NCBI RefSeq assembly: GCF_044324785.1
Contig: NZ_CP172127.1
Source: Escherichia coli
Lineage (GTDB): Bacteria > Pseudomonadota > Gammaproteobacteria > Enterobacterales > Enterobacteriaceae
Direction: 5' to 3' (one strand)
DNA length: 64,000 nucleotides
Below, one piece after another: positions 4,453 to 5,647 of the stretch (its first letter is position 1; each line of letters opens with the position of its first letter). The notes beneath the pieces are model-generated. The model had not been told where the DNA came from. It was given only the letters and a program-made list of their open reading frames with translations, and did not search any database. The position numbers were made by a program, and so were the translations under genes.

Positions 4453-5647
4453 GGAAGGTGCGAACAAGTTCCTGATATGAGATCATCATATTCATCCGGA
4501 GCGCATCCCAGAGGGACATCATGAGCCATCAACTCACCTTCGCCGATAGTGAATTCAGCACTAAGCGCCGTCAGACCCGAAAAGAGATTTTCCTCTCCCG
4601 CATGGAGCAGATTCTGCCATGGCAGAATATGACCGCTGTCATCGAGCCGTTTTATCCCAAGGCGGGCAATGGCCGACGGCCCTATCCGCTGGAGACCATG
4701 CTGCGTATTCACTGCATGCAGCATTGGTACAACCTGAGCGACGGTGCCATGGAAGATGCCCTGTACGAAATCGCCTCCATGCGCCTGTTTGCCCGATTAT
4801 CCCTGGATAGCGCCCTGCCGGATCGCACCACCATCATGAATTTCCGCCACCTGCTCGAGCAGCATCAACTGGCCCGTCAATTGTTCAAGACCATCAATCG
4901 CTGGCTGGCCGAAGCAGGCGTCATGATGACCCAAGGCACTTTGGTGGATGCCACCATCATTGAGGCACCCAGCTCTACCAAGAACAAAGAGCAGCAACGC
5001 GATCCGGAGATGCATCAGACCAAGAAAGGCAATCAGTGGCACTTTGGCATGAAGGCCCACATTGGTGTCGATGCCAAGAGTGGCCTGACCCACAGCCTAG
5101 TCACCACCGCGGCCAACGAGCATGACCTCAATCAGCTGGGTAATCTGCTTCATGGTGAGGAGCAATTTGTCTCAGCCGATGCCGGCTACCAAGGAGCGCC
5201 ACAGCGCGAGGAGCTGGCCGAGGTGGATGTGGACTGGCTGATCGCCGAGCGTCCCGGCAAGGTAAAAACCTTGAAGCAGCATCCGCGCAAGAACAAAACG
5301 GCCATCAACATCGAATACATGAAAGCCAGCATCCGTGCCAGGGTGGAGCACCCGTTTCGCATCATCAAGCGGCAGTTCGGCTTCGTGAAAGCCAGATACA
5401 AGGGGCTGCTGAAAAACGATAACCAACTGGCGATGTTATTCACCCTGGCCAACCTGTTTCGGGTGGACCAAATGATACGTCAGGGGAGAGATCTCAGTAA
5501 AAACCGGAAATAACGCCAGAAATGGTGGAAAAAATAGCCTAAATAGGCTGATTCGATGTGTTTGCGGGAAAAAAATCGGCCCAGATCCGCGAAATTTTAA
5601 TCAGCGAGTCTGCTTGGGAAGAAATGACCTGCTTATTCGCACCTTCC
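4453..5647 (+). mobile_element. IS5-family insertion sequence, 1195 bp (IS5-like, diverged from canonical IS5)
   Basis: 16-bp terminal inverted repeats GGAAGGTGCGAACAAG (4453-4468) and CTTATTCGCACCTTCC (5632-5647), 1 mismatch; flanked by a 4-bp direct repeat AAAG (4449-4452 and 5648-5651); contains a 330-aa IS5-type transposase ORF. Confidence 0.9.
4521..5513 (+). CDS. IS5-family transposase (InsH-like), 330 aa
   Basis: Protein [36 protein letters not shown]… matches my recollection of IS5 transposase along most of its length; C-terminus differs from canonical InsH. Confidence 0.9.

Follow-up and report, generated by a model that had tools for sequence, protein, structure and literature searches.

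A complete ISKpn26 isoform with a one-base deletion at an off-consensus AAAG target between ehaB and hemB of Escherichia coli

An insertion sequence lies between the divergent genes ehaB (yaiT in K-12) and hemB in one Escherichia coli sequence (assembly GCF_044324785.1, contig NZ_CP172127.1). We asked which element it is, whether it was placed there by transposition, whether its lineage still moves and whether its position bears on the expression of either neighbor. All coordinates refer to the window, that is, the whole stretch of 64,000 nucleotides that was analyzed. With high confidence, we regard positions 4453-5647 as a recently transposed, structurally complete copy of ISKpn26, belonging to a minority lineage with a one-T deletion and inserted at the off-consensus site AAAG.

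The element (4453-5647, plus strand, 1195 bp) is bounded by 16-bp inverted repeats, IRL (GGAAGGTGCGAACAAG, 4453-4468, given on the plus strand) and IRR (CTTATTCGCACCTTCC, 5632-5647, likewise), which are complementary at 15 of 16 positions. A search of the 64-kb window with the IS5-type end motif (start GGAAGGTGCG) gave two matches only, IRL and IRR, for a chance expectation of 0.04, and the copies in other genomes that are 100% identical to the element start and end at the same bases with different flanks. The transposase gene (4521-5513, plus strand, reading towards hemB) encodes 330 aa with DUF772 and DDE_Tnp_1 domains. Its product matched the NCBIfam IS5-family transposase model NF033581 along the entire profile (positions 1-285 of 285, transposase residues 24-313) with 367 bits for a cut-off of 140, and Pfam detected DUF772 at residues 51-124 (E-value 6e-21) and DDE_Tnp_1 at residues 138-312 (E-value 3e-35). 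The element has the hallmarks of the IS5 family and its IS5 group, and the original prediction of a complete 1195-bp IS5-family element with 16-bp terminal inverted repeats was accurate in ends, length and repeats.

Several minor open reading frames touch the element. A 99-aa ORF (4425-4724, minus strand) is antisense to the 5' end of the transposase gene and exits through IRL into the ehaB-side flank. In other genomes, small ORFs called “hypothetical protein” by the NCBI pipeline begin in the 3' end of the IS and exit through IRR into the flank (loci L001, L002, L009, L010, L013 and L018); in the window, the equivalent plus-strand frame runs open from 5476 until its stop codon (5654-5656) and has no early ATG or GTG start. 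These small ORF calls across IRR are probably annotation artefacts. Elsewhere in the window, ARAGORN called an 81-nt tRNA-Ser(GGA) at 47627-47707 (minus strand); since the Rfam scan of the whole window at the gathering threshold returned no tRNA, the likely explanation is a false call or a degenerate remnant. The only Rfam match was naRNA4 (CssrE), a nucleoid-associated non-coding RNA, at 58079-58148 (plus strand), with 78 bits for a gathering score of 59.5.

By ISfinder convention, copies that share the same ends and at least 95% nucleotide identity are isoforms of one element; ISKpn26 was first named in Klebsiella pneumoniae. Using megablast against 5426 complete E. coli genomes, we retrieved at least 25 records that are 100% identical to the element over all 1195 bases, all of them annotated as “IS5-like element ISKpn26 family transposase” and found at varied chromosomal and plasmid locations. 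Identity was 98.7% to the 1196-bp ISKpn26 copy of AP021935 and 99.7% to 1196-bp copies on Klebsiella, Citrobacter, Salmonella and Enterobacter plasmids, placing the element, which has the same ends, within the isoform limit of copies that NCBI labels ISKpn26. Identity to the IS5 copy of CP173546 was 90.8%, below that limit, and the non-coding 3' end was the most diverged part. The name thus follows the NCBI annotation of near-identical copies together with the published length and family (1,196 bp, IS5 family, 4-bp direct repeat; PMC8023600) rather than the ISfinder reference. The window element shares with ISKpn26 its ends, 16-bp inverted repeats, single DDE transposase and 4-bp duplication, and differs in being one base shorter, in an altered transposase tail (330 instead of 326 aa) and in the off-consensus target AAAG; its length of 1195 bp and its 330-aa transposase are both due to a 1-nt deletion relative to the 1196-bp form. 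On these alignments, the element is an ISKpn26 isoform with a one-base deletion and not IS5 proper. This refines the earlier description as a clearly diverged IS5: the element is a named and very common one with many identical copies. In the plasmid collection, at least 5000 records matched, and among the matches listed the hosts were mostly Klebsiella (2399), Escherichia (1433), Enterobacter (515), Citrobacter (265) and Salmonella (180). It is a known, abundant element of Enterobacteriaceae plasmids and chromosomes, found here at a site with no earlier record.

The element is flanked by AAAG on both sides (4449-4452 and 5648-5651), the left junction consisting of the flank GACATATATAAAG followed by the IS start GGAAGGTGCG, and precise removal would leave ...ATATATAAAGCACG... 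as the site without the element. In the E. coli genomes AP021935, CP173546, N3 and CP086678 (loci L002, L005, L020 and L021), the site is uninterrupted (...GACATATATAAAGCACGTG...) and AAAG occurs once; the IS-free allele of these genomes reads ...GTCCGATTGCGGACATATATAAAGCACGTGAACACAC.... When the left and right flanks of the window were aligned to each of these four genomes, they overlapped by exactly the four bases AAAG. AAAG is a true target-site duplication, as the original prediction had claimed, and the comparison with an empty site that was named there as a possible refutation came out in its favor. An origin of the two AAAG flanks by coincidence, through an IS-mediated rearrangement, is ruled out by these empty sites. 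Such rearrangements are common for this ISKpn26 variant, making the comparison with empty sites worthwhile: the tetranucleotides on the two sides differ in 5 of 12 sampled identical copies (eleven from other E. coli and the window's own; loci with non-matching flanks L008, L011/L019, L012, L017 and L018), a sign of IS-mediated deletion, inversion or inter-copy recombination after insertion. The copies of YD786 and C21, both with non-matching flanks, have a common left flank.

K-12 carries no IS in the hemB-yaiT intergenic region, in agreement with the original prediction, which expected no IS5 there. To the right of the insertion point, as far as about 5870, its allele departs sharply from that of the window; it reads ATATATAATTTATGG, with no AAAG at that place, and K-12 is therefore not a clean empty-site reference. 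The two intergenic alleles (K-12 locus L006) are about 96-100% identical on both outer sides and strongly divergent in the middle (4450-4452 and 5652-5870). The left boundary of this divergence, immediately after ATATATAA, coincides with the IS insertion point, and the IS-free genomes already have the window-type allele.

AAAG agrees with the YTAR target motif at two of four positions. A strong YTAR motif was found in 220 reconstructed IS5 insertions (PMC5009759), and all seven sampled identical copies with intact duplications elsewhere use it (TTAG, CTAG, TTAA, CTAA, CTAA, TTAG and TTAA). With the older IS5 consensus C(A/T)A(G/A), quoted in PMC11894529, AAAG agrees at three of four positions. 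The 525-bp intergenic region offered six canonical YTAR sites, including one at a distance of 24 bp from the insertion. IS5 used a CTGG target at bgl, and easily deformed AT-rich DNA has been proposed to attract it (PMC5493358). YTAR being a preference and not a defining requirement, the assignment to the IS5 family stands despite the non-YTAR target. The target preference of IS5 is strong but not strict, and the use of AAAG is a curiosity rather than an anomaly.

Among the 5426 complete E. coli genomes, we found no IS at this position: six records covered at least 80% of a query made of the IS and its flanks, all with other arrangements, and the exact left junction was also absent from the GTDB species-representative genomes. 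Over the adjoining 24 kb (5648-30000, comprising hemB, tau, mhp, frm and the start of lacZ), the best identity among the 5426 genomes was 98.6%, to N3, which carries the empty site, and most other genomes had at most 98.1%. With a best identity of only 98.6%, the source strain has no close relative in this collection. The lack of any divergence from other copies, the perfect duplication, the absence of the insertion elsewhere and the empty site of N3 together point to an insertion that is recent and restricted to a narrow lineage.

As far as the sequence tells, this position fits IS-mediated promoter activation of the bgl, glpFK or fucAO type. Like the activating IS5 insertions at bglGFB, glpFK, fucAO and flhDC, it lies in an AT-rich intergenic region upstream of promoters; it differs from them in having no Crp site upstream, in its non-YTAR target and in being ISKpn26 instead of IS5. 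The original prediction, which suggested altered expression of either neighbor, correctly placed the element 152 bp from the yaiT start (IRL to the ehaB ATG at 4301) and 379 bp from the hemB start (IRR to the ATG at 6026).

We consider it unlikely that the insertion switches on ehaB, whether by parting its promoter from an AT-rich, H-NS-type silencer or through DNA conformation. The reading frame of the gene is intact: it encodes an autotransporter adhesin of 969 aa (1392-4301, minus strand, TIGR01414 autotransporter beta-barrel domain), and the orthologous position is annotated as ehaB in N3 and CP173546. Between the IS and the ehaB ATG, a single sigma-70-like promoter is predicted, at 4383-4412 (minus strand; -35 TTGAAC at 4412-4407, -10 CATAAT at 4388-4383); it has 9 of 12 consensus matches and is weak evidence, as the scan found four sites where 2.3 were expected. 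It lies wholly in native DNA, with the edge of the IS 40 bp (4413-4452) upstream of its -35 and at about -75 to -80 from the putative transcription start. The scan predicted no hybrid outward promoter at either junction, and inspection of IRL and its flank by eye found no workable spacing. The insertion site is at the edge of an AT-rich intergenic tract (5652-5900, 23% GC at 5700-5899), which the IS now displaces by 1.2 kb from the ehaB promoter region. The likeness to derepression of the bgl type lies in this shift of an AT-rich upstream tract away from a promoter region, and IS5 activates genes by derepression and by disrupting H-NS looping (PMC11894529). Against such an activation of ehaB, the literature searched on yaiT/ehaB yielded no link to H-NS, and hence no evidence of H-NS silencing of the gene, and no definition of its promoter, which our scan matched to the consensus only weakly. 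Activation in the glpFK manner would start from the 3' end of the element; this end faces hemB here, and it is where ISKpn26 departs most from IS5. Finally, IS5-group elements disrupt ehaB in other strains, suggesting tolerance of its loss and not selection for its expression.

We counted at least six separate insertion or deletion events at the ehaB 5' region of other strains (loci compared: L002, L005, L021, L022, L003 and L004), including ISKpn26 and IS5 at the same CTAA. ISKpn26 in AP021935 and IS5 in CP173546 both occupy this CTAA (window 4262-4265, codon 13 of ehaB) in the same orientation, and CP103673 has an ISKpn26 of the AP021935 type at CTAA together with an adjacent deletion reaching the equivalent of window position 5899. 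CP086678 carries an IS5 at TTAG further inside ehaB, CM132250 and CP117010 show IS-bounded truncations at ehaB, and K-12 has an IS3 in yaiT. The gene itself also varies: the 969-aa EhaB shares 64% protein identity with the 983-aa EhaB of N3, the closest complete genome, and 2694-4218, which encodes most of the passenger domain, is without a nucleotide-level counterpart in N3. The ehaB 5' region looks like a recurrent target or part of a dispensable gene. It is doubtful that the 5' and upstream region of ehaB is an IS5-group hot spot in which the AAAG insertion forms a regulatory allele, with ehaB uncoupled from an AT-rich silencer or hemB subject to read-through.

The element's own transposase gene differs from that of reference ISKpn26 and of IS5 by the loss of a single T between 5483 and 5484 (site 5480-5487, plus strand), according to the alignment with the 1196-bp ISKpn26 and IS5. 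The reference transposase ends in ...MIRQWERSQ (326 aa), and the deletion replaces WERSQ by GRDLSKNRK (330 aa), altering the last six codons alone and moving the stop four codons downstream. The change starts at residue 320, and the Pfam and NCBIfam matches end at residues 312 and 313, so that it lies outside the conserved DDE domain. The different transposase C-terminus noted in the original prediction is thus real, its source being the single-T deletion relative to ISKpn26 and not general divergence.

The element might also be dead, its frameshifted transposase gene a pseudogene, and be carried passively or moved by a helper transposase only; this appears distinctly unlikely. The view of a relic draws on the PGAP flag “frameshifted”, set on every identical 1195-bp copy that we fetched, and on the rarity of the variant: a 61-nt probe across the deletion matched 67 E. 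coli records at 99% identity or more and 2363, corresponding to the reference form, at 95-99%, and a 42-mer specific to the deletion had no match in the GTDB species-representative genomes. The 42-mer was found in one metagenome contig (L007), which holds a single IS end, so that no duplication could be read. Judging from these counts, the 1195-bp form is a minority lineage. Its distribution argues against a relic: 7 of the 11 distinct identical copies that we sampled have their own matching duplication at seven different loci, which, with the window copy, makes at least eight different sites with fresh duplications, in strains of human, poultry, pangolin and environmental origin from several countries. 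The element retains its two ends and a fully intact DDE domain, and the change is confined to the last six codons with a four-codon shift of the ORF end. In some chromosome records, for example that of YD786 (one place), the 1195-bp variant is the only IS5-like element. With identical copies at seven further loci, all accompanied by a duplication of their own, the 1195-bp lineage evidently still transposes. Autonomy of the 330-aa transposase would likewise follow from the distribution of copies; a helper acting in trans, an intact co-resident ISKpn26 or IS5, may contribute.

The transposase gene is read in the same direction as hemB (porphobilinogen synthase, 6026-7000, plus strand), and by the orientation rule of glpFK and fucAO it is hemB, not yaiT, that would be in the activatable position. 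The insertion might raise hemB expression through read-through from the transposase promoter, as in fucAO, or through a bent, IHF-binding 3' end, as in glpFK; we judge this to be quite improbable. In fucAO, the IS5 is located at -374 to -371, oriented as the downstream operon, and the fusion promoter requires a Crp site just upstream of IS5, the IS5 transposase promoter being otherwise inactive (PMC11894529). The distance to hemB (-379) and the common direction are similar, and no terminator-like site was predicted on the plus strand from the transposase stop (5513) to hemB. A crude motif search found no Crp-like motif in 4301-4460, which covers the 152 bp left of the IS and its first 8 bases, so that the Crp site directly upstream of the transposase promoter on which the fucAO mechanism depends was not seen. 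In glpFK, the activating region is the 3' end of IS5, whose non-coding part carries the bend and the IHF site required for activation, and it works from about 126 bp in a manner dependent on helical phase. The distance here is about three times larger, and the 3' end of ISKpn26 is substantially unlike that of IS5. In addition, hemB, a housekeeping gene, has a conserved promoter block of its own: the segment 5905-6026 is almost invariant between otherwise divergent alleles, and in strain 4069, where the native DNA upstream of hemB is reduced to 127 bp beside an ISKpn26-associated deletion, the gene is intact. For these two reasons, the core hemB promoter is almost certainly untouched by the insertion. 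From the features described, the most likely outcome is that hemB is affected slightly or not at all and that ehaB responds in an uncertain way, and any regulatory effect on either gene is speculation from sequence.

A canonical K-12-type IS5 carrying a few mutations is effectively excluded, since a common family and group, equal length (1195 bp), almost identical terminal repeats, the same gene organization and a YTAR preference in the sampled copies are outweighed by the alignment to the CP173546 copy, with its 90.8% identity and strongly diverged 3' non-coding part, against 98.7-100% for ISKpn26 copies.

For the recently transposed ISKpn26 copy that we prefer, the following course of events is proposed. 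The copy comes from the minority lineage in which a T close to the transposase 3' terminus is deleted, a change that swaps only the last few residues, outside the catalytic domain. The DDE transposase would bind the 16-bp terminal inverted repeats and join the element into a 4-bp staggered cut of the target, here at the edge of the very AT-rich stretch between the divergent ehaB/yaiT and hemB, and repair of the cut would produce the AAAG duplication. The chemistry is that known from the DDE family, and the duplication is seen directly. Expression of hemB would be unaffected or slightly raised by read-through, given that the conserved promoter-proximal block is intact. ehaB would keep its proximal promoter and lose its AT-rich upstream DNA, by which its expression may be raised, lowered or left unchanged.

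The insertion could serve as a strain marker and has little importance beyond annotation. Its AAAG target documents that the YTAR preference has exceptions. The “frameshifted” label of the NCBI pipeline covers the whole 1195-bp lineage, yet the distribution of its copies argues for mobility. An easily deformed AT-rich target, or selection on the adhesin that is relaxed or negative, may explain why IS5-group elements have entered the ehaB 5' region repeatedly in E. coli. If expression of ehaB or hemB were found to be changed, the AAAG insertion would be one more IS5-type regulatory mutation on a well-known list.
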